A stretch of DNA of 64,000 nucleotides, from contig DASTDY010000077.1 of assembly GCA_035710125.1 (NCBI GenBank), positions 5,401 to 69,400 on the forward strand, read 5' to 3'. This stretch comes from Candidatus Saccharimonadales bacterium. Lineage in GTDB: Bacteria > Patescibacteriota > Saccharimonadia > Saccharimonadales > EFPC-124. Of the stretch, positions 4,998 through 48,231 are shown in pieces. The translations under genes and the position numbers were made by a program. The notes below the pieces were generated by a model, which had not been told where the DNA came from, searched no databases, and worked only from the letters and a program-made list of their open reading frames with translations. Every line of letters begins with the position of its first letter. Position 1 is the stretch's first letter.

Positions 4998-6077
<1,080 letters not shown>

Positions 6078-15588: not shown

Positions 15589-17301
15589 ATGAGAGTTTCT
15601 AAACTTTTTGGAAAACCAAGCAAAACTGAAGGTTCAGACTATAAAATTGATTCGCACCGGTTGCTCACGCAGGCTGGTTTTATTAGGGAGTCGAGCGCAG
15701 GACGTTACTATTTGTTGCCGCTCGGCTTAAAGGTACACGAAAAAATTATCGCTATTGTGCGCAAGCACATGAACAAAGCCGGCGCACAAGAGCTGGTTAT
15801 GCCAATTTTGCACCCGCTAGAGCTTTGGCAAGAGACCAACCGTACTACCACAGTTAGCTTTGAGCTCATGAAAATCACCGACCGCCGCGGCGCCGAATTC
15901 GCACTGGGCGGCACCGCAGAAGAAATGGCCGTGGATTTAATCCGCCACTTTAATATAAGCTACAAAGATTTGCCATTTAACGTGTACCAATTCAGCAATA
16001 AGTTCCGCGATGAGCTCCGTGCCCGCGGCGGCCTGCTGCGCGTTCGCGAATTTGTTATGAAAGATGCCTACAGTTTTGGCACCGAAGACCAATTTAAAGA
16101 TGTGTACCAAGGCATGTGGGACACCTACAAGGCAATCTTTAATGAGGCAGGCCTAAAAGTAGACGTGGTTGCGGCAGACAACGGCTACATTGGCGGCGAT
16201 TACTGCCACGAATTTGTAGCAGAGGCCAAGGCAGGGGAGAGCCGCTACTTTATAGATGAAAAATCTGGCTACGCTGCACACGAAGATGTCGCTACATTTA
16301 CAATCGGCGATAAAAACACAGAAGAAGCGCTTAAGCCCTTGCAACAAGTGGCTGCCGACCGCGGCCCTACCATGAAAGATGGCGAGGACTTTCATAAGCT
16401 ACCGTTGTGGCAACAAGTAAAAGATGTGCTATATTTTGACGAAGCGACCAAGCGCTACATTCTAGCTGTAATCCGTGGCGACCTAGACGTAAACGAAACC
16501 AAGCTTATGCAAGCCGCAGGCGCATGGGACTTGCGTGCGGCCACCGAAGACGAAATCCGGCACGACCTTGCCAGTGAACCTGGCTTTATATGCCCTGTGG
16601 ATTTTGTAAAACATGGCAAAAAAACCAAGTTTCCAGTGGTAATTGTGGGTGACAAATCGCTAAGGACCGCCCGCAATATGTATGGCGGCGCCAACAAGAA
16701 ACACCTGGACCACCTTAATATAAACATTGACCGTGACTACAAGGTGGACATAGAAGCCGACATAGCACTTGCCCAGGCTGGTGTGCCCAGCCCAGACGGT
16801 AATCCATTAGTAGAAAAACGCGGCATAGAAGTAGGTAATATATTCCAACTAGGATATCACTACTCCAACCTGATGGAAGGCGCAGAATACACCGACGAAT
16901 CCGGCAAACGCCAAAAATACTACATGGGCTGTTACGGTATTGGCATTGGCCGCACTTTGGCTGCAATTGTAGAGGCAAACCACGACCAAAAGGGGATTAT
17001 GTGGCCGGAAAGCGTGGCTCCGGCTAAAATATACCTTGCCCGCCTTGGCAACAATCCCGATACTACCAAAGTTGCCGATGACCTGTACCAAACACTCCTC
17101 GAAAAAAATATAGATGTGCTCTACGATGACCGTGACGCCCGCCCTGGCGAAAAGTTTGCCGACGCCGACCTCATGGGAATCCCATATCGAGTTGTAGTGA
17201 GCGACAAACTGGTGGCCGCCAAACAATTTGAGCTAAAGGCACGCTCCCAAGACGAGTTTGAACTGCTTACGCACGCCGAATTACTCCAAAAAATTAGCTA
17301 A
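15589..17301 (+). CDS. proS: prolyl-tRNA synthetase
   Basis: 570-aa class II ProRS-like sequence, including an insertion/editing-like middle region. Confidence 0.95.
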   Translation: MRVSKLFGKPSKTEGSDYKIDSHRLLTQAGFIRESSAGRYYLLPLGLKVHEKIIAIVRKHMNKAGAQELVMPILHPLELWQETNRTTTVSFELMKITDRRGAEFALGGTAEEMAVDLIRHFNISYKDLPFNVYQFSNKFRDELRARGGLLRVREFVMKDAYSFGTEDQFKDVYQGMWDTYKAIFNEAGLKVDVVAADNGYIGGDYCHEFVAEAKAGESRYFIDEKSGYAAHEDVATFTIGDKNTEEALKPLQQVAADRGPTMKDGEDFHKLPLWQQVKDVLYFDEATKRYILAVIRGDLDVNETKLMQAAGAWDLRAATEDEIRHDLASEPGFICPVDFVKHGKKTKFPVVIVGDKSLRTARNMYGGANKKHLDHLNINIDRDYKVDIEADIALAQAGVPSPDGNPLVEKRGIEVGNIFQLGYHYSNLMEGAEYTDESGKRQKYYMGCYGIGIGRTLAAIVEANHDQKGIMWPESVAPAKIYLARLGNNPDTTKVADDLYQTLLEKNIDVLYDDRDARPGEKFADADLMGIPYRVVVSDKLVAAKQFELKARSQDEFELLTHAELLQKIS

Positions 17302-18036: not shown

Positions 18037-18696
18037 GTGGAAATCAAGGTGTTGGTGTTCAGCGACTGTGGCAACGCACCCTTTTTTGAGTTCGCGCCCG
18101 ACGGCCGCCGGTACACCGAGTTCCGCTCGTTGCGGGACGTGCCGGACCGCATCAAGAAAGCGGGGGTCAGTTGCGAAATCAGCGCTACAGTGGAAACCAA
18201 CGGCTACAACCTGGGTGTGTTCGTGTACGAAGACTGGGGCAACGCCGAGGTAATCGCAACCGGCAACATGGTCCGAGTGGTGGCAGACACGGTGGAATGG
18301 GCTAACGTCGCGTTTACGCAGCACATGGGCGGTGTTGCCCAGTGGCTGCTAGAACACGGCGGGTTTGCGCCTGTCGACGTCGGTTTTGAGATCAGAGCCT
18401 ACGGCAAGGATCCCAAGCGTTACCCCTTGCAAGAGGGGGGTCAGCGGTACACCGTGTTCACTTCGACCACGGTGGCCAAGGATCTGAAGAAGCCGCTGTA
18501 CTTCCAGTACCGCTGTACATCACCTCATCGCTTCGAAAACTACGCCTTGGGTCGGTCGACTATCGAGGCCGAAGGGGGGCCGGTGGAGTTCATCAACACC
18601 GGCGTCTGCGTGATTGCCAGCGGTAAGTTGCTCAGCGATGTAGACAGCGTGTGGCAGCAGATGCTACGAGAAGCGTTCGACCAGCAGCACGGCTGA
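18037..18696 (+). CDS. array paralog 1, two-module protein of the NGYxLG module family
   Basis: GTG start after GGAAGGAAG. Module a: IKVLVFS..NGYNLG..IATGNMVRV..WANVAFTQHMGGVAQW. Module b: FEIRAYG..ENYALG..INTGVCVI. Confidence 0.7.
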   Translation: MEIKVLVFSDCGNAPFFEFAPDGRRYTEFRSLRDVPDRIKKAGVSCEISATVETNGYNLGVFVYEDWGNAEVIATGNMVRVVADTVEWANVAFTQHMGGVAQWLLEHGGFAPVDVGFEIRAYGKDPKRYPLQEGGQRYTVFTSTTVAKDLKKPLYFQYRCTSPHRFENYALGRSTIEAEGGPVEFINTGVCVIASGKLLSDVDSVWQQMLREAFDQQHG

Positions 18697-18703
18697 CTCA
18701 CGC

Positions 18704-18739
18704 GCGGTGCGGCACGGTTTCTGACCGGTGCCGCACCGC
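18704..18739 (+). terminator. 12-bp perfect hairpin after array paralog 1
   Basis: GCGGTGCGGCAC (18704-18715) pairs with GTGCCGCACCGC (18728-18739). Confidence 0.6.
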
Positions 18740-18782
18740 AAGTGTCATGCAATTAATCCCACGAGAGACCAGGATGGGCGAC

Positions 18783-19457
18783 ATGTTTGTGAAGGTCCGC
18801 GTTTTTGGCCCCGAGGGCCACCGTGCGTTCAAGGACGGCAACGAGCACGGCAGCTTCAAGGACTATGCCGGCTTGGAGCTGGTGCCGGGCGTGATCCAGA
18901 AGGTGGCGATCATGTATCAAGTGGTTGCCATGGTCGCGCGCAACGGCTACAACCTGGGCACGCTGCCATCGCCGGTGAACCCGTCGGTGATGGTGACAGC
19001 CACAGGCGACCGAGTGACCTTTACGGCACTCGATCTGGACACCGCCTTCAAGGTGTGGAACCACCACGCCGAGGAGATGGGTAAGTGGATGCAGGGCATC
19101 CAGCGGGTGGAGTTCAACCTGGGTACGCCTTTCGAGATCCGTGCCTACGGTGAGAACCCCATGGTCTATCCACACATCGACTGCGGCCAGCAGTACGCGG
19201 CCGTCAAGACGTTCGGCGAGGCGGCGCGCTTCAAGGACGCCACGTTTTTCCGCGTAGGAAGCATCGTGCCGCTCAACTACCACACGTTCGGTGTGAGCCT
19301 GTGTGGCGAGAACGGCGATGTAGAGGTGATCCACACCGGCAACTGGCTGGTCGTGGGCGCTTCGTCGCTGGAGGCAGCCAAGCAGGCGTTCAACGACGTG
19401 ATGCTCAAGCTGCACGCCTGCGTGGTAGACGAACACGCCGCGAAGCAACTGCTGTGA
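18783..19457 (+). CDS. array paralog 2, two-module protein
   Basis: MFVKVRVFG..NGYNLG..VTATGDRVTF..AFKVWNHHAEEMGKW, then FEIRAYG..LNYHTFG..IHTGNWLVV. Start chosen by analogy to paralogs 3 and 4. The in-frame ATG at 18774 is also possible. No clear AT-rich promoter of its own. Confidence 0.65.
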   Translation: MFVKVRVFGPEGHRAFKDGNEHGSFKDYAGLELVPGVIQKVAIMYQVVAMVARNGYNLGTLPSPVNPSVMVTATGDRVTFTALDLDTAFKVWNHHAEEMGKWMQGIQRVEFNLGTPFEIRAYGENPMVYPHIDCGQQYAAVKTFGEAARFKDATFFRVGSIVPLNYHTFGVSLCGENGDVEVIHTGNWLVVGASSLEAAKQAFNDVMLKLHACVVDEHAAKQLL

Positions 19458-19478
19458 CGGGCTGATTCAACGCTGGGC

Positions 19479-19505
19479 GGGTGTCAGGCGTTCTGTCTGA
19501 CACCC
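19479..19505 (+). terminator. hairpin after array paralog 2
   Basis: GGGTGTCAG (19479-19487) pairs with CTGACACCC (19497-19505). Confidence 0.6.
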
Positions 19506-19631
19506 ACTCACATCCCTTTTTATCATTTTTTGTGTGTAACGAGCTGCCATCTTGCTTAAGCTGGCAGATTTTATTTTTAGTGTTATAATATTCCATCGAG
19601 TCATTACACCTATGCAAGGGAAGTGATCGGC

Positions 19632-20744
19632 ATGTTTGCTATTGTCCGTGCGTTTGGTAAGTACGACGGCGTTGTGTTCAAGAGGAAGGCCAGCGGCGGC
19701 GGCCCGATGCAGTGCTACGTGGATTTCGTGAGCTTCGAGGCCGTCACCGAGGCAGCAAAAGCCGCCGCGGATTACTACGAGGTCACTTTTGCTGTCGCAG
19801 CCAACGGCTACCGCTTGGGCACACACCCAGCGCCCAACCACCCTAGCGTTGAGGTGTCGGCCACCGGTGACCAAGTGGTTTTTACCACGACCAACTTTGA
19901 TACTGCCAAAGCGGTGTGGAACGACCACGCCGCTGGAATGGCTGTCTGGTTGGAGGACTACGGTAGGCCAGAGTTCCACTTTGGCGAGTTGTTTGAGGTG
20001 CGCGTGTGCGGCGTTCGAGCCGACCTTCCCAAGAAAGGCGATGCCTACAAGTATCTCTGCTGCGGCTCGTTCGGCGAGGCCGCCGAATACAGCGACACCG
20101 CAGAGTTCTTCGAAGTGCGCACGGTGATGGAGGCCAACGGCTACCGCATGGGATCCTACGCCATCGGCTCAGGAGACCAAGCGGTTGACGTGACCGCAAC
20201 GCCGATGGGCCTTGTGGTCACTGGCATGGACCTGGCATCGGTGCAAGCGGCATGGACCGACCACATGGCCGGTTACCAGCAGTACGTGGAGCAATCCAAG
20301 CTGGTTGCCCGCGAGGTGACAGGTATGCGGATCAGCGTGTTCAGCAATCGCCCGCACACCATGTTGCCGTTTAGGCAAGGGAGCGGCCACTTTGGGGTTT
20401 TCGATGGCCTTACCGGCCTGCCGGAAGCACTGATCGGTGAAGGGTCGGATGATGAGTTTTCTTACAGCATCGAATCGCCTGCGCCGAGTAACCCCTTCTT
20501 GCTTGGCATGCACATACTCACGAAGGACGCAGAGGAAGGGTCTCCCAACGCCACACTGGTGGCTACAAACGCCGTCTTCAAGGTTGTGTCGTCTAGCTAT
20601 GCGTTTGCCCTGGTCGTATGGAATTGCTATCAGGTCACGATGAACGGTACGCATGTGGAGATGTCCCAAGAGGCGAGCCGGCGGCTCTTTGAGCTCTGCC
20701 GGAACACGGCTATCCTTGCTGAGCAGGCTGACCAACAGGGCTGA
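19632..20744 (+). CDS. array paralog 3, three-module protein
   Basis: AAGGGAAG SD, then ATG (MFAIVRAFG). Modules contain NGYRLG..SATGDQVVF..AVWNDHAAGMAVW, then FEVRVCG..NGYRMG..VTATPMGLVV..AAWTDHMAGY, then MRISVFS..FLLG..VATNAVFKV. TATAAT at about 19593. Confidence 0.7.
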   Translation: MFAIVRAFGKYDGVVFKRKASGGGPMQCYVDFVSFEAVTEAAKAAADYYEVTFAVAANGYRLGTHPAPNHPSVEVSATGDQVVFTTTNFDTAKAVWNDHAAGMAVWLEDYGRPEFHFGELFEVRVCGVRADLPKKGDAYKYLCCGSFGEAAEYSDTAEFFEVRTVMEANGYRMGSYAIGSGDQAVDVTATPMGLVVTGMDLASVQAAWTDHMAGYQQYVEQSKLVAREVTGMRISVFSNRPHTMLPFRQGSGHFGVFDGLTGLPEALIGEGSDDEFSYSIESPAPSNPFLLGMHILTKDAEEGSPNATLVATNAVFKVVSSSYAFALVVWNCYQVTMNGTHVEMSQEASRRLFELCRNTAILAEQADQQG

Positions 20745-20865
20745 TCTGCCGCATCGCAGGCATCTCTTGGTAGTTGCAACATTGGCTCACCCGCGGCGCG
20801 GATGCTGGGCACTCGCCCGGCACCCGCGTCCGCAGATCTGAAATTATTTTAATTATGCAAGATTT

Positions 20866-20894
20866 TTGCATAGATAAGTTATTTAGTATATAGT
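20866..20894 (+). promoter_or_regulatory. promoter of array paralog 4 (TTGCAT-N17-TATAGT)
   Basis: TTGCAT at 20866-20871, 17-nt spacer, TATAGT at 20889-20894, inside an AT-rich spacer. Confidence 0.55.
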
Positions 20895-20936
20895 TTTTGT
20901 TGAGTTGACCCCATCAACCCCAGAGGAGTGGTTAAC

Positions 20937-21671
20937 GTGTTGTTTGGTGTGAGCGTGTTCGGACCTCCCATCGGCCAGATTTTTCCCAAGATCGACGAAC
21001 AAAAGGGTTCGTACGCAGAGTTCGACAGCTTCGATGCCATCACCGGCGACGTGCAGGAGCAGGCGTTGCACTACGAGGTGCTCGGTGAGGTGTCGCCCAA
21101 CGGTTACCGCTTGGGCGAGCACAGGGCGCCGAACTACCCGTCGGTTCTGGTGCAGGCGTCGGGCAACAGGGTGGCGGTTTCTGCCCCAACGTTGATCGAG
21201 GCCAAGTCGGCGTGGAACGACCACCTCGCGGGCATCGACCAGTGGCTCCAAGCCCACTTGCGGTCGCAGGCCTCTCAGCCGATCTCGGTGAGAATCACAG
21301 TGCACGGCCCAGCTGGCACCGAGGCCCTCACCGAATTTCTCGCCGACGGCACTGCCTGCGCCACGTTCGATGACTTCGAGATGGTGCCGGCGCACTTGGC
21401 GGGGGCGAACAACCTGACTTTTGTGGTCACATCGCCGACGCTGCCCAACCATTTCATGATCGGCGGCTTCCGCGTGAGCGAGGAGCCAAGGGCGGGCCAC
21501 TACGGCACGGTGTCGTCCAACGGCCTGAGTCTGCGGGTGCAGTCGCACAACTTGCTGTTCGCCATGAGGGTTGTGTACGTCTTCCTTGGCGCTATCGGCA
21601 AGGACTCCGTGTACGCCACTGAGGCGAGGGATGAGCTCTTGCAGTTGCGCCGCAACGGCAGAATGAGCTGA
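20937..21671 (+). CDS. array paralog 4, two-module protein
   Basis: The GTG at 20937 lies 8 nt after GAGGAG, whereas the track start at 20928 overlaps the SD. LFGVSVFG..NGYRLG..QASGNRVAV..SAWNDHLAGIDQW, then VRITVHG..HFMIGG..SSNGLSLRV..ELLQLRRNG. Confidence 0.7.
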   Translation: MLFGVSVFGPPIGQIFPKIDEQKGSYAEFDSFDAITGDVQEQALHYEVLGEVSPNGYRLGEHRAPNYPSVLVQASGNRVAVSAPTLIEAKSAWNDHLAGIDQWLQAHLRSQASQPISVRITVHGPAGTEALTEFLADGTACATFDDFEMVPAHLAGANNLTFVVTSPTLPNHFMIGGFRVSEEPRAGHYGTVSSNGLSLRVQSHNLLFAMRVVYVFLGAIGKDSVYATEARDELLQLRRNGRMS

Positions 21672-21682
21672 CTCACCGCGGG

Positions 21683-21712
21683 GTGGATGCCGGACAACCG
21701 CTCGGCATCCAC
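21683..21712 (+). terminator. hairpin after array paralog 4
   Basis: GTGGATGCCG (21683-21692) pairs with CGGCATCCAC (21703-21712). Shares GATGCCGGAC with the hairpin at 22564-22595. Confidence 0.6.
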
Positions 21713-21812
21713 GCCCGCAGGCACATGTAATCACCTTTTTAATATTGATTTTATTTTAATTTTAGTTTATAATTTTTACCCGTCAGACAAATTCTGCTTC
21801 GGGAGGATTAGC

Positions 21813-22553
21813 GTGGACGCGCTCCGAATCACTGTTTCTGTTGACCGCAAAGTCGAGGAGGTGCTCGGCCGCCTTTATAAGGGCGAGAATGACGGATACT
21901 GCGTTGACTTCATCGTCTTCGACGACATCCCCGCCAGCGTGGCCGCCGTGGCCACAGGGTGCAGGGTGGTCTGCCCGACGGCTGAGCATCGCTACGCGCT
22001 CGGCACGTTCGACTCAGACATCAGCGTGGACGAGCACACCCTCGAGAGGGTGCGCTACAACGTGACCGGCCGCAGTGCTGTGATCGACGCCAAGACTGTG
22101 GCCGGCGCACGTGCTGCCTGGCAACACCTCATGGCGTGTGTTGCGGCGTGGCGGCCAAACACAACCGGGTTCAACATTCGGGTGTTCGCCGAGGCCGACA
22201 ACCCGCTGACGCCCATCGCAGTGGGCGACGGCCGCGGGTACGCGGATTTCCCCAACCTGGAGTCCGTGCCCACCACGCTGGTAGAGCACGCGCTCACCGT
22301 GGTTGTGGAGTCGCCAGTACCCGACAACTGCTATCAGTTGAGTTCGTACACGGTGTGCGAGGATCCAACTGGCAGGGGAGACCGCGCCAAGGTCACCGCA
22401 ACCGGCATGTCCGTGAAGGTTGCCTCGACCAGCTTGAGTTTCGCCTGGCGTGTGTTCAACCTGTACCTCGGTGGTCTGCCGCAAGTGCCGACGGGGTGCC
22501 GCGAGGAACAGCAGGCTGAGTTCCGGCAGCTGCGCAACAACGCTGTGTCCTGA
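21813..22553 (+). CDS. array paralog 5, two-module protein
   Basis: GTG at 21813 after GGGAGG. TTGATT-N17-TATAAT upstream. LRITVSV..HRYALG..NVTGRSAVI..AAWQHLMACVAAW, then FNIRVFA..CYQLSS..VTATGMSVKV..EFRQLRNN. Confidence 0.65.
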   Translation: MDALRITVSVDRKVEEVLGRLYKGENDGYCVDFIVFDDIPASVAAVATGCRVVCPTAEHRYALGTFDSDISVDEHTLERVRYNVTGRSAVIDAKTVAGARAAWQHLMACVAAWRPNTTGFNIRVFAEADNPLTPIAVGDGRGYADFPNLESVPTTLVEHALTVVVESPVPDNCYQLSSYTVCEDPTGRGDRAKVTATGMSVKVASTSLSFAWRVFNLYLGGLPQVPTGCREEQQAEFRQLRNNAVS

Positions 22554-22563
22554 CAACCGCGAT

Positions 22564-22595
22564 GCAGATGCCGGACGGGAACGTCCGGCATCTGC
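22564..22595 (+). terminator. 14-bp perfect hairpin (GGAA loop) after array paralog 5
   Basis: GCAGATGCCGGACG-GGAA-CGTCCGGCATCTGC. Confidence 0.65.
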
Positions 22596-22676
22596 TCGCG
22601 CAAACCGCCCTTCTGTAATCAGCGGTAGCATTAAAGTATAATTTTATTTTGTCAGTCCAATCGAGTAGGGAGGAAC

Positions 22677-23081
22677 GTGAGCGACAAAGCGCTTACAATT
22701 GTGGTGTTCACCAAGGCTGCAGGCCTGGGCACCGGACGTTTCGCTTCGGATTCCGAGGAGCAGGAAACGTTTCAGACGTTCAACCAGATCCCCGAAGAGC
22801 TCGCCAAAAAAGTGATTCGCTGCCGTGTAAGCAGTGAAGTTGCAGAAAGCGGCTACGGCCTGGGCGAAACCGAAAGGCGGTTTGGCCCTATCGCCGACGA
22901 GCAGGTAGTGCGCCTTACGTCGACGGGTGTGTGGCTGTGTGTCGAGGGCCCCAATGTGGCTTCCGTCCGTGAGGCATGGGACTACCACTTGAAGGAGATC
23001 GGAAACTGGCGCCGTGCCAACTGGTCACCACGGCGCGTTGCCATGCCGGGTGAGTACGGCGAGCAGGATCCGCTCAGGTGA
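22677..23081 (+). CDS. array paralog 6, single-module protein
   Basis: GTG after AGGGAGGA. TATAAT at about 22645. LTIVVFT..SGYGLG..LTSTGVWLCV..EAWDYHLKEIGNW. Confidence 0.65.
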   Translation: MSDKALTIVVFTKAAGLGTGRFASDSEEQETFQTFNQIPEELAKKVIRCRVSSEVAESGYGLGETERRFGPIADEQVVRLTSTGVWLCVEGPNVASVREAWDYHLKEIGNWRRANWSPRRVAMPGEYGEQDPLR

Positions 23082-23209: not shown

Positions 23210-25531
23210 ATGGCGACACTAAAAGAACTCCGCGACGAACGGCTCCGCAAGTTAAATGAGCTTACACAATTGGGCGTTAACCCGTATCCGGCTAAAGCCG
23301 AGCGCACGCATACATTACGGGCAGTTAACGAGCAGTTTGCCAAGCTTGAAGGCGCACAGGCCAGTGTAGTTGGCCGTATCACCAACATCCGCAAATTTGG
23401 CAAAATAGCTTTTGTGGTAATTCGCGACGCTACTGGTAGTTTGCAATTATTTTTGGGTGCCGATAAAGTTGCGGACTTAAACGCCGAAGACTCGCAAATT
23501 GGGTTCGACCAACTGCCGCTACTAGATTCAGGCGATTTTATCCAGGCCGACGGCCAGATAATCAAAACCAAAACTGGCGAAATCAGCATTGGAGTAGAAC
23601 GTCTGCGCCTGCTCACTAAATCGCTCCGCCCGCTGCCTGGCGCGCACGATGGTTTTACCAACAAAGAAGAACGCCTGCGCCGCCGCTACGTAGACACCAA
23701 CGCCAACCCTGACGTATACGAACGCTTTTTACGCCGCAGCGCGTTTTGGCAAGCCACACGCGACTTTTTGTTGAGCGCTGAATTTGTAGAAATCAACACG
23801 CCAGTGTTAGAACTTACCACCGGTGGGGCAGACGCCAACCCATTTGTTACCCACATGGACGCCCTAAACCAAGATTTTTACCTGCGCATTAGCCACGAAC
23901 TGCCATTAAAGCGTTTGTTAGTTGGCGGCTACGAAAAAGTCTTTGATATTGGCCCCCGGTTCCGTAACGAAAATTACTCAGACGAACACCTACCCGAGCA
24001 CATCGCCATGGAATGGTACTGGGCCTACGCCGACTGGAACATGGGCATGCGCTTAACTGAACAGTTGGTGCGTAGTATTGCCGACAAAACCTGGGGCACC
24101 CGCCAGTTCACCCTGGCAAATGGCATGCAGGTAGACCTTGGCGCAGACGGCGAAGACTGGCCGCGCATTAGCTTTGTAAATATTATGCAGGAGCATTTTG
24201 GCCTAAACGTGTTTACCTGCACGCTCGACGAAGTAAAAGCCCAGCTTAAAAAATACGGTGTCGAAGTAGAGAAGTCAGAGAATAGGCCGCGCGGCATTGA
24301 TAAATTATGGAAGAAGATTCGCGGTACCCTGCCTGGCCCCGCATTTTTAGTTGATATTCCAACCTTTTTGCAGCCACTCGCCAAAACCCAAGCCAGCAAC
24401 CCCGAGCTAACTGAACAATTTAACTTGCTCCTGGGCGGCAGCGAATTATGTAAGGCGTACTCTGAGCTCAACGACCCCATAGACCAATTGAACAGATTTG
24501 TTGAACAACAAGCCATGCGCGACGCCGGCGACGATGAAGCTATGATGCTCGACATCGACTACGTTGAAGCCCTGGAATACGCCATGCCCCCAGCCTGCGG
24601 ATTTGGCTTTAGCGAACGCCTATTTTGGGTGCTAGAAGGCGTCACCGCCCGCGAAGGCGTGATATTCCCAGCCCTTCGCCGCGAAATAGACGAAACCACC
24701 AAAACGGTATATCCCGATTTAAAATTTGAGGCGCCTGCACCAAAACCGGCGCCCAAAGCATCAGCCAAAGACCTGCCAGAATCCGCAGCCGAGCAGGGGA
24801 CGGTCAAGCTATATTTAGATAATTACCAACTAACCGAATGCAACGCCACGTTGGTAAGCACAGAAGATCTTGGCGAAGGCAGCTACCGTTTTGTACTAGA
24901 CCAAACCTGCCTGTATCCGGGCGGTGGCGGCCAAGATTTCGACCTCGGCAAATTAGAATGGGACGGCGGCGAGCTTGTTTTAACCTCTGTCAGCAAAGAT
25001 AAAGACGGCATTGTGTACCACGACGGCACCCTGCAAGGCGAGCTGCCAAAACCAGGCGACCGCATAGAATGCGAAGTAGACGAACCCCGCCGTTTATTAA
25101 ACTCGCGCCTGCACTGTGCCGGTCATTTAATAGACTACGCAATCGCAAAACTCGGCAAAGACTGGAAAGCCGGCAAGGGCGCGCACTACCCAGGCCGCAG
25201 CTACGTAGAATACGACGGCGAATATGTGGCCGAAGAATCCGAAACCCTGGCGCGCTCAATCGAAACCGTGCTGCAAAACCTAGTGCAAGAAGGCGGCGCA
25301 ATCACACCATCGCGCGTACCCGGCGCCGACGCCAACAAATACAGCGCCTACCTGCCGCAAACCATTTTAGATTCTTACAAAAACGTGCACGTCACCAAAT
25401 ACCCGCACGACTTTGCAGTGTGCTGCGGCGGGACACATCTTAAAGACGTATCCGAGCTCGGTGAAGTAAAAATCACAAAGATTAAGAAAAAAGATGGCCA
25501 TATCCGCGTAAGTTACGAATTGGTGAGTTAG
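23210..25531 (+). CDS. lysS: class II lysyl-tRNA synthetase fused to a C-terminal AlaX-like (tRNA_SAD) editing-type domain
   Basis: LysRS core (OB fold, GPRFRNENYSDEHLPEH, class II motifs) to about aa 500. A Pro/Ala/Lys linker follows, then a domain with HxxxH (LHCAGHLI) and CxxxH (CCGGTH) motifs. Confidence 0.85.
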   Translation: MATLKELRDERLRKLNELTQLGVNPYPAKAERTHTLRAVNEQFAKLEGAQASVVGRITNIRKFGKIAFVVIRDATGSLQLFLGADKVADLNAEDSQIGFDQLPLLDSGDFIQADGQIIKTKTGEISIGVERLRLLTKSLRPLPGAHDGFTNKEERLRRRYVDTNANPDVYERFLRRSAFWQATRDFLLSAEFVEINTPVLELTTGGADANPFVTHMDALNQDFYLRISHELPLKRLLVGGYEKVFDIGPRFRNENYSDEHLPEHIAMEWYWAYADWNMGMRLTEQLVRSIADKTWGTRQFTLANGMQVDLGADGEDWPRISFVNIMQEHFGLNVFTCTLDEVKAQLKKYGVEVEKSENRPRGIDKLWKKIRGTLPGPAFLVDIPTFLQPLAKTQASNPELTEQFNLLLGGSELCKAYSELNDPIDQLNRFVEQQAMRDAGDDEAMMLDIDYVEALEYAMPPACGFGFSERLFWVLEGVTAREGVIFPALRREIDETTKTVYPDLKFEAPAPKPAPKASAKDLPESAAEQGTVKLYLDNYQLTECNATLVSTEDLGEGSYRFVLDQTCLYPGGGGQDFDLGKLEWDGGELVLTSVSKDKDGIVYHDGTLQGELPKPGDRIECEVDEPRRLLNSRLHCAGHLIDYAIAKLGKDWKAGKGAHYPGRSYVEYDGEYVAEESETLARSIETVLQNLVQEGGAITPSRVPGADANKYSAYLPQTILDSYKNVHVTKYPHDFAVCCGGTHLKDVSELGEVKITKIKKKDGHIRVSYELVS

Positions 25532-26242
25532 GTGAACTCCAACTATTTGATTAGCTTCAAGGAGGAGCTGGAACAGATTGATAAACTCGTAGCAACGCCA
25601 AATCTTATACGGGAGTTTGCCATAAGTCAACTCAGGGGAGTGACACGAAAGGCGACTCTCTCATATCAAGACAATTTAAAGATAAACAACGCTATCCAAG
25701 CCTTGGCGAATATTAAGGATGCCTCTATTAGCAGTAACTATCGTGTGATTTATAATCAGGTGTGTGTCTTGGCAGCATCGGCGCTTGAAGCTATTTTAAA
25801 GCGATATTTTATCGATGCCGCTAATGATTACACCCGACTCAATCTAAATAATAAAAAGCTAGATGAGATCAAGGTGACTCTGAGAGTGCTAATAGACAAA
25901 GACCTTAAAGAAGGAACACTTGGAGAAAATATAATTTTATCTGATAACAGTTTAAAATTTCAAGATTTACAGTCGATTAAGCGTGCCTTTTTAGATTATT
26001 TTTCCGGCATGAGCCTGAATTTAGATACGGATCTAGAGAAGAAATTAATTTTTTACCTTGAAGTTAGACACGTAATTGTACATAAATCCTCGTATGTGGA
26101 TAAAAAGTTTTTGCATGCAACGAGTGGTCGTGAAGCAAATTTACGGAGTTGGCAACTGGGCGATAAAGTACAGCTTGATGAAGAAGATTGGAAGAGCATA
26201 AAAGAGTCGTATGCTCTATTATTGGCTGAGATAATTAAGTAA
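25532..26242 (+). CDS. AT-rich gene, HEPN-like protein (Rx4H motif)
   Basis: Visibly AT-rich 236-aa ORF starting at a GTG right after the lysS stop. All-helical-looking, with LEVRHVIVHKSSY (R-x4-H). Confidence 0.45.
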   Translation: MNSNYLISFKEELEQIDKLVATPNLIREFAISQLRGVTRKATLSYQDNLKINNAIQALANIKDASISSNYRVIYNQVCVLAASALEAILKRYFIDAANDYTRLNLNNKKLDEIKVTLRVLIDKDLKEGTLGENIILSDNSLKFQDLQSIKRAFLDYFSGMSLNLDTDLEKKLIFYLEVRHVIVHKSSYVDKKFLHATSGREANLRSWQLGDKVQLDEEDWKSIKESYALLLAEIIK

Positions 26243-26960: not shown

Positions 26961-27860
26961 ATGCAGCAGTTCGACCTTTCCTGGTACGAGGGCGTCACCG
27001 ACAAGAAGTTTGCCGACGTCACGCCGGGTTCGGTTCTGACGTACCAGATCTGGAGTCCTACCAGCGAGCAGGACGGCGCCATGCGCGTGCTCACCGAACC
27101 GTTCGCGCGGACCACGTGGCACGGCAACGTCGACCACAGCACCCACAACCGCGGGGAGTGGCTGGAGTTCCAGGTCGTCTACGGCGAGCTGGTGTTCAAC
27201 CACAGCGCCAAGCTGTTCGGCGAGCCGGACTGGCGGGTGTACCCCGAGGGTCTGGGTGAGCCGCCTGCAGCTACACCGGCTGTGGTGGTCTGGCGCACCG
27301 AGCGCGAGCCCCACCTCATTCCGGTGGCTTCCATCTGGTGGGGCGAGCCGGGGCAGGACGCCGAGGAGTTCCGTCAGCAGGTGTTGGCGGAACTGCCTCA
27401 GCCGTTGGCTGTGGAGGAGCGTTTCGCCCTCCGCGAGGGCACGCCGGTGACGGTGCTGGTGGTTGCCGAGCAGAGCGAGGAGCTCACCGAGCTCCTCGGG
27501 CAGCTCAACCACCCGCTGGTCACGGTCAAGGCGGCGCACTCGGCCGAGGAGACCCTGGCCAAGCTGAACGGTACCGATGTGATCATCGTGGCCGATGAAC
27601 TGCCGATCCGTGCCGGCGAGCAGCCCGTGCGGACGTACTGCGCCGGGTTCATCAGGGATGGCTTGGTGCAGCTCGACATCCCGCTCATCGGCTGGCCCGT
27701 GAACGTGCTTCGGCGCCGCAACAGGGAAGACAACCCCGACCTGGTGACGATGCACCTGCAGGCCGAGTGCGGCCAGGTGCTGGGTGCCATGCCGGAACGG
27801 GGGCGCGTGCCCCTGCACCACGTGCTGGACGCCCTCGGTGTCCACACCACCTACGTGTAA
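26961..27860 (+). CDS. GC-rich cassette gene F, with a receiver (CheY)-like central segment
   Basis: GAGGAG SD and ATG. TTGACT-N17-TATCAT upstream. VTVLVVAEQSEELTELLGQL..VTVKAAHSAEETLAKLNGTDVIIVADELP resembles a degenerate REC domain. A fully antisense 326-aa ORF was rejected. Confidence 0.55.
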   Translation: MQQFDLSWYEGVTDKKFADVTPGSVLTYQIWSPTSEQDGAMRVLTEPFARTTWHGNVDHSTHNRGEWLEFQVVYGELVFNHSAKLFGEPDWRVYPEGLGEPPAATPAVVVWRTEREPHLIPVASIWWGEPGQDAEEFRQQVLAELPQPLAVEERFALREGTPVTVLVVAEQSEELTELLGQLNHPLVTVKAAHSAEETLAKLNGTDVIIVADELPIRAGEQPVRTYCAGFIRDGLVQLDIPLIGWPVNVLRRRNREDNPDLVTMHLQAECGQVLGAMPERGRVPLHHVLDALGVHTTYV

Positions 27861-33884: not shown

Positions 33885-34011
33885 CGACAACTAGCGGGCT
33901 GCACTGCCTTCTTGAAAGCACCTAAGCATTCTGCAAACAGCGGAATGTTTACTTCGCCCTTCGGGTCAGAAGAGTGCTTTCGAGAGGGCAGTGTGCAGCC
34001 CGCTAGTTGTC
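33885..34011. repeat. 127-nt imperfect long hairpin (inverted repeat) in an intergenic gap
   Basis: GACAACTAGCGGGCTGCACTGCC (33886-33908) pairs with GGCAGTGTGCAGCCCGCTAGTTGTC (33987-34011), with a 2-nt bulge. Inner sub-helices involve TGAAAGCAC with GTGCTTTCG. Confidence 0.7.
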
Positions 34012-34057
34012 TGCTTATTGCGTAGTATTAGCCTTCAACCTGGCATATACTAAAACC

Positions 34058-35839
34058 ATGCGAAAATGTTTACTTGCCTTGCTTATAATTGTTGGGCTTT
34101 TAGTTCCGGCAACTGGGGTCCGGGCCGACGCCCAGGATTTTACATTTACTTCTTTTAGTGGCGACTACTACCTTGATTACGTAGAGGGTACTACTATTGC
34201 AGGGCTGCGGGTGGTGGAACGGCTCGATGCCGAGTTTCCCGACTTTGACCAAAACCATGGAATTTTAAGGGCAATCCCCGAAGACTACCAAGGCCATCCG
34301 CTCGAACTAGACATAAAAAAGGTGGCTATGGCAGATGGTACTCCTGTTAACTACCAAACATCTCACCAAAATGGCAATTTGGTATTAAAAATTGGTGATC
34401 CCAATAGTTTTGTGCATGGATCGCAAGCCTATGTTATTGAATACACCATGCGCGGCGTCACCTTGCAGCTACCCGACCACGAAGAATTTTTTTGGGATAT
34501 TAATGGCGACCAATGGGCCCAGCTGTTTAAGAAAGTAGAGGCAAGGGTGCACCTGCCAGCAAATATTGCGAATTCACTACAAAGCCGGTGGGCCTGTTAC
34601 GCTGGCCAGACTGGAACAAACGAACCTAACAAGTGTGCTGCAGTGCTGACAGACCAGCCTGACGGCGGCAAGCTAGTGACATTTACAACAACTGCTGGTA
34701 TGCAAGTGTTGCCGCACCAAACTATGACAATTGTGCTTGGGTTTAATAAGGGTACGTTCGCCGAATACTCACCAAGCGCAAAACAAATACAGCAATGGTT
34801 GTGGATTGGGCTTAGTATTGCGTTGTTGCCGGCGGCCGCCCTGGCATTTACCACGTACCAGTGGTGGCGACGGGGTCGTGACCCTAAGTCTAAGCATGCA
34901 ATTGTGCCACAGTACCTGCCGCCAAAAGATCTGGGCGTTATAAGCAGCGGCATTGTGCTTAAAGAGGCGTTCGATCCAAAAACAGTCACCGCCGCAATTG
35001 TAGACCTTGCCGTGCGCCATTACATAAAAATTTACGAGACCAAACAAAAAGGGCTGTTTACAAGCGCTGAATACCAGCTTGAACTGGTAAAAGCGCCAAC
35101 AGATGTACGGGCAGAGGAGCTTTTGGTCATAATGTTAGTCTTTAAAACAGATACAGTAGGCACAAAAGTCAATTTGGATGACCTCAAGCTAAAGTTAGCA
35201 GAAGAGGCCCGACAAATTGGTAAAAGTTCAGAACGGCAACTCACGACAGATGGCTATTTTAGGGTTCTGCCGTCGCGGGCGACGTTTCCGTACTACTTGA
35301 GCGGCTCCATATTTTTAATTATTGGGTTTTTCTTGTTTGCAGTGGGTGGACTCGAGCAGCCATGGGCCCTTGGTTGGGCGCTAGCCGGTATTTTGCTAAT
35401 AATTTGCGCCCACGCTATGCCTGCGCGCACAGCTAAGGGGGTAGAGGCGCGCAATTATTTGCTTGGTGTGCGTGATTACATAAAACTTGCCGAAGCTGAG
35501 CGTATAAAAGTGCTGCAAAGCCCCCACGGGGACCTGACCGAAAAGATAGAAGTCGGCGACAACCGGCAGTTAATAAAGGTATACGAAAAACTTTTACCCT
35601 ATGCTATTTTGTTTAACCTAGAAAAGGACTGGGCAAAGGCTATGGCAGGATTGTACCAGGAATCGCCAGATTGGTACTCGGGCAATGCTGCATTTAATGC
35701 CGCGTGGTTTGCGGGTTCTATCGCTTCATTTAACACCAGTGCGAATACAGTATTCGCACCACCTAGTAGCTCGTCGTCGAGCGGTTTTGGCGGTGGTGCT
35801 GGTGGCGGCGGAGGCGGCGGCGGAGGCGGCGGTTGGTAG
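34058..35839 (+). CDS. DUF2207-like membrane protein with poly-Gly C-terminus
   Basis: Signal peptide MRKCLLALLIIVGLLVPATGVRA, large extracytoplasmic domain, TM helices, terminal SSSSSGFGGGAGGGGGGGGGGGW. Start moved to 34058. Confidence 0.7.
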   Translation: MRKCLLALLIIVGLLVPATGVRADAQDFTFTSFSGDYYLDYVEGTTIAGLRVVERLDAEFPDFDQNHGILRAIPEDYQGHPLELDIKKVAMADGTPVNYQTSHQNGNLVLKIGDPNSFVHGSQAYVIEYTMRGVTLQLPDHEEFFWDINGDQWAQLFKKVEARVHLPANIANSLQSRWACYAGQTGTNEPNKCAAVLTDQPDGGKLVTFTTTAGMQVLPHQTMTIVLGFNKGTFAEYSPSAKQIQQWLWIGLSIALLPAAALAFTTYQWWRRGRDPKSKHAIVPQYLPPKDLGVISSGIVLKEAFDPKTVTAAIVDLAVRHYIKIYETKQKGLFTSAEYQLELVKAPTDVRAEELLVIMLVFKTDTVGTKVNLDDLKLKLAEEARQIGKSSERQLTTDGYFRVLPSRATFPYYLSGSIFLIIGFFLFAVGGLEQPWALGWALAGILLIICAHAMPARTAKGVEARNYLLGVRDYIKLAEAERIKVLQSPHGDLTEKIEVGDNRQLIKVYEKLLPYAILFNLEKDWAKAMAGLYQESPDWYSGNAAFNAAWFAGSIASFNTSANTVFAPPSSSSSSGFGGGAGGGGGGGGGGGW

Positions 35840-45636: not shown

Positions 45637-48231
45637 ATGAAACAAATCCTAACCAAGATTTTTGGTGATCCGCAAAATAAAACGTTGCGCCGCCTCCGTA
45701 AAAAGGTGCGCCAAATTAATGCGCTGCAAGACGAATTTAAATCTAAAGACGACGCGCAGCTAAAAAAATATACCGCCACACTAAAAGAAAAACTAAAAAA
45801 GGGTAAAACGCTCGACGACATCTTGCCCGAAGCATTCGCGCTGGTCCGCGAGGCCGGTGCCCGCGTGCTTAAAATGCGCCATTTCGATGTACAGCTGATT
45901 GGCGGTATGGCGCTGCACGAAGGCAACGTAGCAGAAATGAAAACCGGTGAAGGAAAAACGCTTGTTGCCACACTCCCGATGTACCTGAACGCGCTCGAAG
46001 GCAAGGGTACCCACCTGGTTACTGTAAACGATTACCTTGCCCAGCGCGATGCAGGGTGGATGGGCGCGCTCTATAATTATTTAGGGCTGTCGGTTGGTGT
46101 GGTTATTGCCGATAAATCATTTATTTACGACCCTACATTCGACAACAAAGAGCACGACGACCCACGCATGCGCAAACTAAAACCAGCCACCCGCAAAGAG
46201 GCCTACGAGGCTGACATTACGTATGGTACCAATAACGAATTCGGGTTCGATTATCTGCGCGACAACATGGTAAACGAAGTAGACCTGCTGCGCCAGCGCG
46301 AGCTACACTTTGCAATAGTAGACGAAGTAGACAGTATTTTAATCGACGAAGCCCGCACGCCGCTTATCATTAGCGCACCAGCCAGTGACAGCGGTAATAA
46401 TTACGCCACGTTTGCGGCAATCGCTAAAAAGTTACTCCCAGAAGACTACGTGCTCGACGAAAAGCGCCGCTCAGTCAGCCTTACCGACGAAGGTGTAGAG
46501 AAGGTCGAAAAGCTGCTAAGTATCGACAACTTTTATGCACCCGAAAATATCCGCTCCGTTTACCACATGGAGCAAGCACTCCGCGCCCAAACCCTATTTA
46601 AGCGCGACAAAGACTACGTTGTATCTAAAGATGGACAGGTAGTTATTGTAGATGAATTTACCGGCCGCCTTATGCATGGCCGCCGCTACAACGAAGGTCT
46701 GCACCAGGCAATCGAGGCCAAAGAAGGCGTACCTGTACTGCAAGAAAGCATGACGCTCGCCACAATTTCGTTCCAGAACTACTTTAGGCTGTACAAAAAA
46801 CTAAGTGGTATGACAGGTACGGCATACACCGAGGCCGAAGAGTTCCAGCAAATTTATGGGCTAGATGTTGTGCAAATCCCGGCCAATAAGCCAGTGATCC
46901 GCGATGACCGCTCCGACATGATTTTTAAGACTGAAGCTGGCAAAATCCGCGCGATTGTAGCTGAAGTAAAGGAGTTCCAAAAGCAAGGACGGCCAGTGCT
47001 TATTGGGTCGGCAAGCATTGCTAAAAACGAAGAAATCAGCCATGCGCTTACAAAGGCAGGCGTAAAACACGCACTCCTTAACGCTAAAAACAACGAGCGT
47101 GAAGCCGTAATTATTGCCGAGGCCGGCCAAAAAGGCGCAGTAACTTTAGCCACAAACATTGCAGGCCGTGGTACCGACATTGTGCTCGGTGAGGGAGTAA
47201 AAGAGTTGGGCGGCTTGGTGGTAATAGGCTCTGAGCGCCACGAATCACGCCGCATAGACAACCAGCTGCGTGGCCGCGGCGGCCGCCAGGGCGACCCAGG
47301 TTTAACGCAGTTTTATGTGTCTACCGAGGACGACCTAATGCGTATTTTCCAGGGTGAACGGATCCGAAGCCTCATGGATAGGCTAGGGGTAGACGAAGAA
47401 ACCCCAATCCAAAACCGTGCAGTGAGCAAAACACTCGAAAGTGCCCAAAAGAAGGTAGAAGGCTACAACTTTGACTCGCGCAAAAACGTGGTGCAGTACG
47501 ACAACGTAATGAACCGCCACCGCAAAGCTGTATATGGAATCCGCAAAGGCATTTTGTTGGGCGAAGATATTTCTGACCGCATTAAAGAGATGCTGGCAGA
47601 AGAAGTTGCCGTGCTTACGGCATTGCCACTCAAGCAAAATCCACAGATGGCGCAGCAGTTTGAGGCGGTTATTCCTGTAGACAGCAAAACGCTAAAAGCA
47701 ATCGTAAAAGAAGAAAAAGACAAAGAGCGTACACAAAAGGCCTTGGCTGCCGCGCAAAAATTGTATGCCGCGCGCGAAGATGAAATTTCGCCAGAGATTA
47801 TGCGCAAAGTAGAGCGCGAAGTGTACTTGCAAGTTATGGACACGCTGTGGATGCAGCATTTAGAGAACATGCAGCACCTGCGCGAGGGGATTCACTTGCG
47901 GGGCTATGGCCAGCGTGATCCGTTGGTAGAGTACCGCCAAGAATCGCAGCATGTGTTTGAGCTGTTGCAGGCTACGCTGCGCGAAGAAGTAATCCGCGCG
48001 CTTTACCACATAACTAAAGGTGAAGTTGCCCAAGCCAAAGACGATAAGTTTGACACTGCGCTAACGCACGCCGCCGAAAATTCGGTAGAGGTGGGTGTGA
48101 ATGAAGTGAGCGAGGTTGAACGCAAGGCAGAATTCAAAACAGAGCCTGCCACCGAGGCCAAAAAGAAAACCCACGACGACCTGCGCAAAAAACGCAAAAA
48201 AGAGCGGCAAAACCGCAAAAAGAAAAAATAA
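45637..48231 (+). CDS. secA: preprotein translocase ATPase SecA
   Basis: 864 aa with Walker A MKTGEGKT, DEVDSILIDEARTPLIIS, and a basic C-terminal tail. Confidence 0.97.
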   Translation: MKQILTKIFGDPQNKTLRRLRKKVRQINALQDEFKSKDDAQLKKYTATLKEKLKKGKTLDDILPEAFALVREAGARVLKMRHFDVQLIGGMALHEGNVAEMKTGEGKTLVATLPMYLNALEGKGTHLVTVNDYLAQRDAGWMGALYNYLGLSVGVVIADKSFIYDPTFDNKEHDDPRMRKLKPATRKEAYEADITYGTNNEFGFDYLRDNMVNEVDLLRQRELHFAIVDEVDSILIDEARTPLIISAPASDSGNNYATFAAIAKKLLPEDYVLDEKRRSVSLTDEGVEKVEKLLSIDNFYAPENIRSVYHMEQALRAQTLFKRDKDYVVSKDGQVVIVDEFTGRLMHGRRYNEGLHQAIEAKEGVPVLQESMTLATISFQNYFRLYKKLSGMTGTAYTEAEEFQQIYGLDVVQIPANKPVIRDDRSDMIFKTEAGKIRAIVAEVKEFQKQGRPVLIGSASIAKNEEISHALTKAGVKHALLNAKNNEREAVIIAEAGQKGAVTLATNIAGRGTDIVLGEGVKELGGLVVIGSERHESRRIDNQLRGRGGRQGDPGLTQFYVSTEDDLMRIFQGERIRSLMDRLGVDEETPIQNRAVSKTLESAQKKVEGYNFDSRKNVVQYDNVMNRHRKAVYGIRKGILLGEDISDRIKEMLAEEVAVLTALPLKQNPQMAQQFEAVIPVDSKTLKAIVKEEKDKERTQKALAAAQKLYAAREDEISPEIMRKVEREVYLQVMDTLWMQHLENMQHLREGIHLRGYGQRDPLVEYRQESQHVFELLQATLREEVIRALYHITKGEVAQAKDDKFDTALTHAAENSVEVGVNEVSEVERKAEFKTEPATEAKKKTHDDLRKKRKKERQNRKKKK

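Follow-up and report, generated by a model that had tools for sequence, protein, structure and literature searches.

Whether the gap in post-transfer editing of lysyl-tRNA synthetase (LysRS) is ever filled in nature, and whether AlaX modules can be re-targeted to another tRNA, are questions for which a natural LysRS with an intact AlaX module provides a test case. Such a protein is encoded by a lysS-alaX fusion gene of Candidatus Saccharimonadales bacterium (Patescibacteria, or candidate phyla radiation, CPR), an ultra-small soil bacterium with a reduced genome. The gene was found on contig DASTDY010000077.1 of assembly GCA_035710125.1, and the window, that is, the whole stretch of DNA analysed, comprises 64,000 nt (positions 5,401 to 69,400 of the contig). 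Residue numbers refer to the 773-aa protein of the window and nucleotide positions to the window. As shown in Table 1, the editing domain and the synthetic site are encoded on one polypeptide by a single open reading frame (ORF). The module is probably an active AlaX deacylase that rides on LysRS and serves mainly as a third sieve for Ser/Gly-tRNAAla in trans. This reading was ranked first, and proofreading dedicated to LysRS was ranked second. The parts were known throughout; the combination and the evolutionary plasticity of LysRS-AlaX are new.

The initial annotation of the window, made from the sequence alone, described a complete class II LysRS, a Pro/Ala/Lys-rich linker and an AlaX-type module with HxxxH and CxxxH signatures, and pointed to a reduced genome. 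All four descriptions were confirmed. Residues 1-492 carry the Pfam anticodon-binding and catalytic domains, and residues 6-492 scored above the cut-off of the NCBIfam lysine--tRNA ligase subfamily PRK00484 (480.2 vs 468 bits) and narrowly below that of the stricter equivalog TIGR00499 (420.8 vs 427.6 bits). GPRFRNE (motif 2, fRNE) and GFGFSER (motif 3, GxGxGx[DE]R) were invariant in 44 aligned homologues. Foldseek matched the N-terminal two thirds of the protein to LysRS crystal structures with an E value of ~1e-43 and a TM-score relative to the target (TMt) of 0.80. The translated linker (IDETTKTVYPDLKFEAPAPKPAPKASAKDLPESAAEQG) agreed with its description, HCAGH, CGGTH and GGGQ were read in the translation, and the host belongs to Candidatus Saccharimonadales within the CPR.

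The gene lies in the conserved order RRF-UppS-RseP-Rce1-like-ProRS-GreA-lysS...DUF2207, which relatives share whether their lysS is fused or solo. The cultivated relative Southlakia epibionticum also has this gene order, and its lysS was essential in transposon sequencing (Tn-seq; PMC10633639 Table S1). Because the order is common to solo-lysS relatives and lysS of Southlakia is Tn-seq-essential, lysS-alaX is the housekeeping lysS, encoding the organism's class II LysRS with predicted lysylation activity.

For the C-terminal part, both domains named for a Pfam check, tRNA-synt_2 and tRNA_SAD, were recovered, the latter at residues 738-766 (3.8e-5, exactly at the gathering score). The beta-barrel end of PF01411 (tRNA-synt_2c, the AlaRS model) matched residues 559-626 (4.4e-11). 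Residues 532-771 covered positions 2-233 of the 234 positions of the NCBIfam AlaXM model NF040865 (E 1.7e-26), and the equivalog cut-off of this model was missed by far (93.4 vs 300 bits). The module is best placed in a bacterial (Patescibacteria) AlaX-M-like branch outside the archaeal equivalog. Sequence searches of the PDB returned archaeal AlaRS 2ZTG (1.3e-16) and AlaX-M 2E1B (8e-15), covering the barrel and the editing region. The AlphaFold model of residues 528-773 reached a pLDDT of 95 and a pTM of 0.91, with the barrel strands present, and Foldseek gave TM-scores of 0.77-0.83 to AlaX-M and to the AlaRS editing region. Relative to query and target (TMq/TMt), the scores were 0.78/0.83 for 3KEW and 0.72/0.81 for 2E1B, and TMq was 0.80-0.81 for AlaRS 2ZTG/3WQY. 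The barrel with GGGQ, the feature that separates AlaX-M from AlaX-S, was present.

In the full-length AlphaFold2 (AF2) monomer, both parts were well predicted, the linker had a pLDDT of ~50-62 (<50 at residues 508-516), and the overall pTM was 0.50. The prediction therefore fixes no orientation between the LysRS and AlaX parts. The AlaX module can be regarded as a tethered domain: the ~38 residues of the linker, predicted at low confidence, could allow it access to the synthetic sites in the LysRS dimer.

The initial annotation held that LysRS is not normally associated with this editing module. In agreement with this, the searched literature describes no such LysRS, and full-text searches of the literature on AlaX, LysRS and synthetase editing in Saccharibacteria/CPR returned no description of the LysRS-AlaX architecture. 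The fused proteins are annotated publicly as 'lysine--tRNA ligase' or 'amino acid--tRNA ligase-related protein', and these labels conceal the editing domain in the databases.

It was also considered whether two genes had been joined by an assembly or sequencing error, as the initial annotation had allowed. Some relatives do have two separate ORFs, owing to a frameshift or a stop in the linker. The protein clusters compared were the best 120 by score, a sample that leaves out distant solo LysRS. The same architecture of 760-790 aa was found in 84 of these 120 clusters, at 54-82% identity and from four data sources (NCBI, JGI, ENA and Logan assemblies), and the identical protein (P0001) was deposited from a Candidatus Saccharimonadales metagenome-assembled genome. 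The composition was the same in both halves, with GC and third-position GC (GC3) of 0.518 and 0.571 in the LysRS part and 0.519 and 0.578 in the AlaX part. The linker end and the barrel start were conserved in frame (SA...GT.KLYL). The split forms resemble derivatives of a fused gene because the linker homology extends upstream of their start codons. With 84 independent fused clusters, equal GC and GC3 and comparable selection on both parts, a joining error can hardly be credited. Two taxon labels on fused genes, Magnetospirillaceae (P0003/L017) and Verrucomicrobiia (L020), were treated as signs of probable mis-binned contigs; both genes lie on short contigs, and their LysRS cores are 84% and 61% identical to the Saccharimonadales one, respectively. 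P0121 and P0122 were rejected as close free-standing homologues, being fragments on contigs of ~1 kb.

Against two relatives of ~80% identity, the ratio of nonsynonymous to synonymous substitution rates (dN/dS) was highest in the linker (0.13-0.17) and similar in the LysRS core (0.09) and the AlaX part (0.10). With dS near saturation these ratios are approximate, yet clearly far below 1, and they indicate that the LysRS and AlaX parts are both under strong, comparable purifying selection. In the 84 fused clusters, H635, G638, H639, C738, C739-G-G-T-H743, G572-G-G-Q575, D578, G580 and R628 were invariant, including all four zinc ligands (H635, H639, C739 and H743). H635, H639, C739, H743, GGGQ 572-575, R628, D578 and G580 were common to the free AlaX relatives too. 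Other invariant residues were specific to the fused clade, namely the changes Q571 to G, P738 to C (free-standing relatives have P at this position) and R727 to H, and the aromatic residues W584, W652, Y731 and F735. G571 flanks the catalytic loop, and C738 adjoins the zinc ligand C739.

These residues bear on the idea that the AlaX-like domain is a non-catalytic appendage that only helps tRNALys binding or complex formation. The AlaX-like domain of Plasmodium TrpRS, which aids tRNA binding (PMC3680381), and one fusion from Peribacteria (L066), which has CGGTP and not CGGTH, speak for such a role. The zinc ligands are replaced in Plasmodium, whereas in the fused clade H635, H639, C739, H743, GGGQ and R628 are invariant in 84 clusters and dN/dS is ~0.1. 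The domain is also freely lost in close relatives, unlike a domain needed for aminoacylation. Since the zinc ligands are invariant, a purely non-catalytic role is considered very unlikely.

A HMMER scan with the C-domain against 1.84 billion cluster representatives yielded 5165 relatives. The best 150 of these were nearly all free-standing AlaX-M-like proteins of ~240 aa with 31-40% identity, including some from Gracilibacteria, and no AlaRS was among them. With 1733 matches at E <1e-10, the free-standing family is common across Patescibacteria. As the best relatives are free-standing, include no AlaRS and belong to a family widespread in Patescibacteria, the module is a diverged branch of the CPR's own AlaX, descended from this free-standing family and not from AlaRS. 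Among the long matches there were more distant LysRS-AlaX fusions (P0237, 786 aa; P0263, 762 aa) and a LysRS-DUF2000-AlaX protein of Candidatus Gracilibacteria (P0266; cluster member P0276, 1002 aa). LysRS was the only synthetase partner among the listed relatives of the module.

A scan of GTDB species identified at least five Saccharimonadales species with the fusion, together with a fused protein of 780 aa in Candidatus Peribacteria (L066, 1375-3717) and a second Peribacteria locus (L060) in which alaX lies 1.3 kb after lysS. In the first of these Peribacteria loci, replacement of CGGTH by CGGTP removes the fourth zinc ligand, and HSAGH and GGGQ are kept; this module may be an inactivated or altered version. 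The survey of phylogenetic distribution proposed in the initial annotation thus places the fusion in Saccharimonadales, in Peribacteria and, with an inserted DUF2000, in Gracilibacteria. At least 18 Saccharibacteria species carried AlaX as a free-standing protein (32-40% identity), and no lysS lay within 3 kb on either side of its gene. Among the GTDB matches listed (at least five fused vs at least 18 free species), no assembly contained both the fused form and a free-standing AlaX.

Comparison of close relatives at the same syntenic locus showed four states of lysS: fused to alaX, split with alaX directly after lysS, lacking the lost module, or fused to DUF2000 or NUDIX. Among LysRS cores at least 80% identical to that of the window, fused and solo forms alternated as sister pairs in a neighbour-joining (NJ) tree, and neither alaX nor a remnant of it lay downstream of the solo lysS of L001, L003 and L015. 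Pairwise identities of the core and the AlaX part co-varied among the fused proteins (r = 0.62), and the most similar AlaX parts were found in the subclade of the window. The fusion therefore predates this subclade, and its solo members represent losses. This inference of ancestry is restricted to the interleaving within the subclade of at least 80% core identity; the broader statement from the NJ tree that the fusion is ancestral was rejected as stated, the list of the best 120 clusters leaving out distant solo LysRS by score.

In three loci (L008, L010 and L011), alaX was a separate ORF directly after lysS. A frameshift within the linker separates the two genes in L008/L009 and L010. In L011 (5881-6060), an in-frame TGA in the linker is followed by GAGGG, which resembles a Shine-Dalgarno sequence, and by a TTG start at the conserved 'LP.SA' motif; this locus may have arisen by clean fission of the gene, with translation starting anew at alaX, or else be a candidate for stop-codon read-through. 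Fusion of adjacent genes was rejected as the origin of the architecture: L001, L003 and L015 are solo without a downstream alaX, and the split forms look like disrupted fusions, except for L011 with its clean stop and restart. Another locus (L013) has a lysS-DUF2000 gene (1-1665) and a free alaX 4 kb further on, with a transposase between them. Further C-terminal partners of LysRS in the clade were DUF2000 alone (P0116), DUF2000 together with AlaX (P0104 and P0118) and NUDIX (P0119). The DUF2000 segment on LysRS (PF09391) gave a weak match to Pfam PTH2 and matched the uncharacterised structure 2GAX (Atu0240); no link between DUF2000 and tRNA was found in the searched literature. As relatives have adjacent genes or no module at all, the covalent linkage between LysRS and AlaX would be convenient and not obligatory.

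The loss pattern also speaks against a suggestion of the initial annotation, that a trans-editing activity had been scavenged in a reduced genome. The fusion is widespread in Saccharimonadales and was repeatedly lost or split in the window's subclade, and the strongly reduced Southlakia has a solo LysRS and lacks AlaX. From the losses and from Southlakia, the module therefore looks discarded, not acquired, by reduced lineages.

According to the preferred reading, the module would be a zinc-dependent aminoacyl-tRNA deacylase. Its predicted substrates are tRNAs mischarged with small amino acids, that is, Ser and probably Gly, as for AlaX-M, and its main job would be the canonical 'third sieve' for Ser/Gly-tRNAAla in trans. 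AlaX is known to back up AlaRS as a third sieve, and nearly all tRNAs mischarged with Ser are substrates of the eukaryotic enzyme (PMC11260482). Class II LysRS attaches Ala, Thr and Ser to tRNALys in error and has no post-transfer editing (PMC4173786). A side benefit of proximity is conceivable, in that a module tethered next to the active sites of LysRS would meet Ser-tRNALys and could clear it, perhaps together with Ala- and Thr-tRNALys. In favour of generic AlaX activity, the module keeps the full set of AlaX signatures, with invariant zinc ligands and a dN/dS of ~0.1. The split pairs (L008, L010 and L011) and the distant alaX of L013 must work in trans, and the module can therefore work unlinked. 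Fused and free AlaX appeared mutually exclusive among the GTDB matches listed, which is consistent with a possible substitution of one for the other.

The module may also back up a truncated AlaRS of the CPR type, as a barrel-less AlaRS was found in the one genome examined, that of Southlakia. The LysRS of S. epibionticum ML1 is solo, with 501 aa (PMC10633639 Tables S1, S2), and its AlaRS has 635 aa, with catalytic domain, tRNA-recognition domain and editing core (PMC10633639 Table S2). The editing core is represented by PF07973 at residues 580-630 and by an ECOD editing domain at 486-635, and the beta-barrel and C-Ala are absent (PMC10633639). A 'small-AlaRS' has been described in CPR in a preprint. 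In the tables for S. epibionticum, PF01411 and PF07973 occur in no other protein except ThrRS, and there is no entry for AlaX, DTD, YbaK/INS or DUF2000 (PMC10633639); its editing repertoire is unusually thin. The initial annotation had asked whether AlaRS lacks its own editing domain, and this is not the case in S. epibionticum. As its AlaRS keeps the editing core, AlaRS editing is not simply absent in the group, and AlaX was lost there, not fused. In the window there was no AlaRS, and a tblastn search with an approximate E. coli AlaRS probe matched the fused domain alone; no AlaRS was found in the 96 fetched loci either. An 864-aa ORF at 45637-48231 was considered as AlaRS and rejected as SecA.

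Several findings weigh against a generic role. The module was repeatedly lost among LysRS cores at least 80% identical to that of the window, and Southlakia lives without any AlaX; the function is therefore dispensable in some lineages. The partner was always LysRS in Saccharimonadales, Peribacteria and Gracilibacteria, and the hydrolase-like DUF2000 domain is found on LysRS as well. The fused-clade changes at 571, 738 and 727 adjoin the active site. The constant partner, the presence of DUF2000 and the altered residues speak more for a LysRS-directed role than for a generic one.

Such a role would be dedicated proofreading, in line with the new proofreading specificity that the initial annotation had suggested; the support for it is circumstantial. 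A module re-targeted to tRNALys would supply the post-transfer editing otherwise missing from LysRS, removing Ala, Ser or Thr from mischarged tRNALys when its acceptor end moves out of the synthetic site in the dimer that bears the module. Besides LysRS being the sole synthetase partner seen among the listed module relatives, the two parts are again linked or adjacent in Peribacteria (fused in L066, close together in L060) and in Gracilibacteria (P0276), as in Saccharimonadales, although the recurrence in three CPR groups could reflect one ancient fusion. In the split forms alaX stays directly after lysS, and a second putative ester-hydrolase domain (DUF2000, PTH2-like, 2GAX) is likewise fused to LysRS; yet very close relatives lost the module, their LysRS showing no visible change. 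The fused-clade invariants G571, C738, H727, W584, W652, Y731 and F735 lie near the catalytic loop or the zinc ligand. Against this, every canonical AlaX/AlaRS signature is kept, including an Arg that was aligned by hand with R693 of E. coli AlaRS, a residue linked to tRNAAla specificity, and AF2 did not dock the two parts with confidence (pTM 0.50). The errors that such an enzyme would correct, mischarging with Ala, Thr and Ser, are documented for LysRS together with the lack of post-transfer editing (PMC4173786), and some AlaX enzymes show relaxed tRNA specificity (PMC11260482). The AlaX pocket, however, is shaped to exclude alanine, which in S. pneumoniae is the main error reported for LysRS. 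It is conceivable, though less likely than the preferred reading, that LysRS in several Patescibacteria lineages gained post-transfer editing for its own errors, with G571, C738 and H727 reflecting a new amino-acid or tRNA specificity and DUF2000, which takes the same position in some relatives, acting as a second tRNA-ester hydrolase. If so, hydrolytic proofreading would be seen here for the first time in a lysyl-tRNA synthetase.

In a further alternative, the module tunes the tRNA pool by deacylating correctly charged tRNA (e.g., Lys-tRNALys or Ser-tRNASer) or takes part in some use of aminoacyl-tRNA outside translation. The LysRS-MprF fusion (LysX), for which NCBIfam has a model, would be a precedent, as it shows LysRS put to work on tasks other than translation. 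The NUDIX domain on one LysRS of the clade (P0119) hints at regulatory or nucleotide-linked side functions, and cognate Ser-tRNASer is also a substrate of human and yeast AlaX (PMC11260482). The sequence gave no sign of a larger pocket fit for lysine, and no conserved gene for a lipid or cell-wall transferase adjoins lysS at the loci compared. This alternative is held to be at least as improbable as a non-catalytic appendage. The NUDIX-bearing protein has 685 aa, with a LysRS core 81% identical to that of the window and the NUDIX domain C-terminal at residues 541-631. LysRS is known to produce Ap4A, which is a substrate of some NUDIX hydrolases; this LysRS-NUDIX protein may therefore couple Ap4A synthesis and breakdown.

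The preferred tethered AlaX can be set beside several known systems. Free AlaX-M proteins (P. horikoshii PH0108 2E1B, P. furiosus 9IUW and C. perfringens 3KEW) share the GGGQ barrel and the HxxxH/CxxxH zinc core, and the free-standing Patescibacteria family of 'alanine--tRNA ligase-related protein' (~240 aa) is among the nearest sequence relatives. In contrast to free AlaX-M, the module of the window forms the C-terminus of a LysRS, has 31-40% identity, scores 93 bits vs the AlaXM cut-off of 300 and has its own G571, C738 and H727. The AlaRS editing region (A. fulgidus 2ZTG/3WQY, P. horikoshii 2ZZF) likewise consists of a homologous barrel and core on a class II synthetase and gave the best PDB sequence and fold matches. 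Here, however, the host synthetase is LysRS (subclass IIb), there is no C-Ala, and a low-confidence linker takes the place of a packed interface.

Plasmodium TrpRS was the sole precedent found in the searched literature for an AlaX-type domain on a synthetase other than AlaRS or ThrRS, and it too has a long linker (PMC3680381). Its domain is AlaX-S-like and N-terminal, has lost all four zinc ligands and is regarded as a tRNA-binding aid (PMC3680381), whereas that of the window is AlaX-M-like and C-terminal and keeps every catalytic signature. The YbaK/INS family (INS of ProRS, free YbaK and ProXp-ala) follows the same logic, with one hydrolytic module fused, split or free by lineage, and ProRS in the clade of the window occurs with and without INS. 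The fold and the synthetase are different, and cis-editing is established by experiment for ProRS, whereas here it is a putative role. The lysS locus displays the life cycle of an editing module within one clade, in which it is free, adjacent, fused, supplemented with DUF2000 or NUDIX, or lost, and this bears on the erosion of translation quality control in reduced genomes.

Table 1. Features of the lysS-alaX gene of the window and of its product.
Feature	Residues	Position (nt)	Strand	Evidence or remark
lysS-alaX fusion gene		23210..25531	+	Single uninterrupted ORF, ATG start, 773 aa; range includes stop codon
LysRS OB-fold anticodon-binding domain	52-135	23363..23614	+	Pfam PF01336 (tRNA_anti-codon), 6e-12; AF2 pLDDT ~90
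LysRS class II catalytic core	152-487	23663..24670	+	Pfam PF00152 (tRNA-synt_2), 4.4e-58; motif 2 GPRFRNE, motif 3 GFGFSER
Pro/Ala/Lys-rich linker	493-530	24686..24799	+	Lowest conservation in the protein; low AF2 pLDDT; highest dN/dS
AlaX-M N-domain, beta-barrel	531-626	24800..25087	+	Pfam PF01411, C-terminal part; pLDDT >90
Glycine-rich GGGQ loop	572-575	24923-24934	+	Translation
AlaX/AlaRS-type zinc editing core	627-773	25088..25528	+	NCBIfam AlaXM, PDB sequence and Foldseek matches
HxxxH zinc motif HCAGH	635-639	25112..25126	+	Translation
CxxxH zinc motif CGGTH, directly after C738	739-743	25424..25438	+	Translation

The tRNA and Rfam scans of the window gave no tRNA gene and no Rfam match, and no tRNAAla or tRNALys gene was present in the window or in the fetched Saccharimonadales loci. 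Six tandem paralogous ORFs of 219, 268, 373, 247, 288 and 134 aa lie between greA and lysS (18037-23081, +), where relatives carry other small unannotated ORFs. Their mutual identity was 25-39% (E down to 2e-33), none matched Pfam, and their GC of 0.59-0.62 (GC3 0.68-0.84) is much higher than that of the flanking housekeeping genes (0.49-0.52). Two further ORFs without a Pfam match follow lysS-alaX: a 236-aa ORF (25532-26242, +) with a very low GC of 0.374, which begins immediately after the last base of the lysS-alaX stop codon, and a 299-aa ORF (26961-27860, +) with a very high GC of 0.671 and a GC3 of 0.887. The DUF2207 gene, which lies within ~0.5 kb of lysS in relatives, was 8.5 kb from it in the window (34007-35839). 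From this displacement and the unusual GC of the ORFs, lysS is therefore flanked by compositionally foreign insertions.

The editing equipment of the neighbouring ProRS (15589-17301, +) also varied. It has 566-570 aa with INS/tRNA_edit in the window, L003, L006 and L015, 415-418 aa without INS in L001, L004 and L011, and 473 aa with ProRS-C_1 in L010. Among these loci, the INS state of ProRS was uncorrelated with the LysRS-AlaX state.

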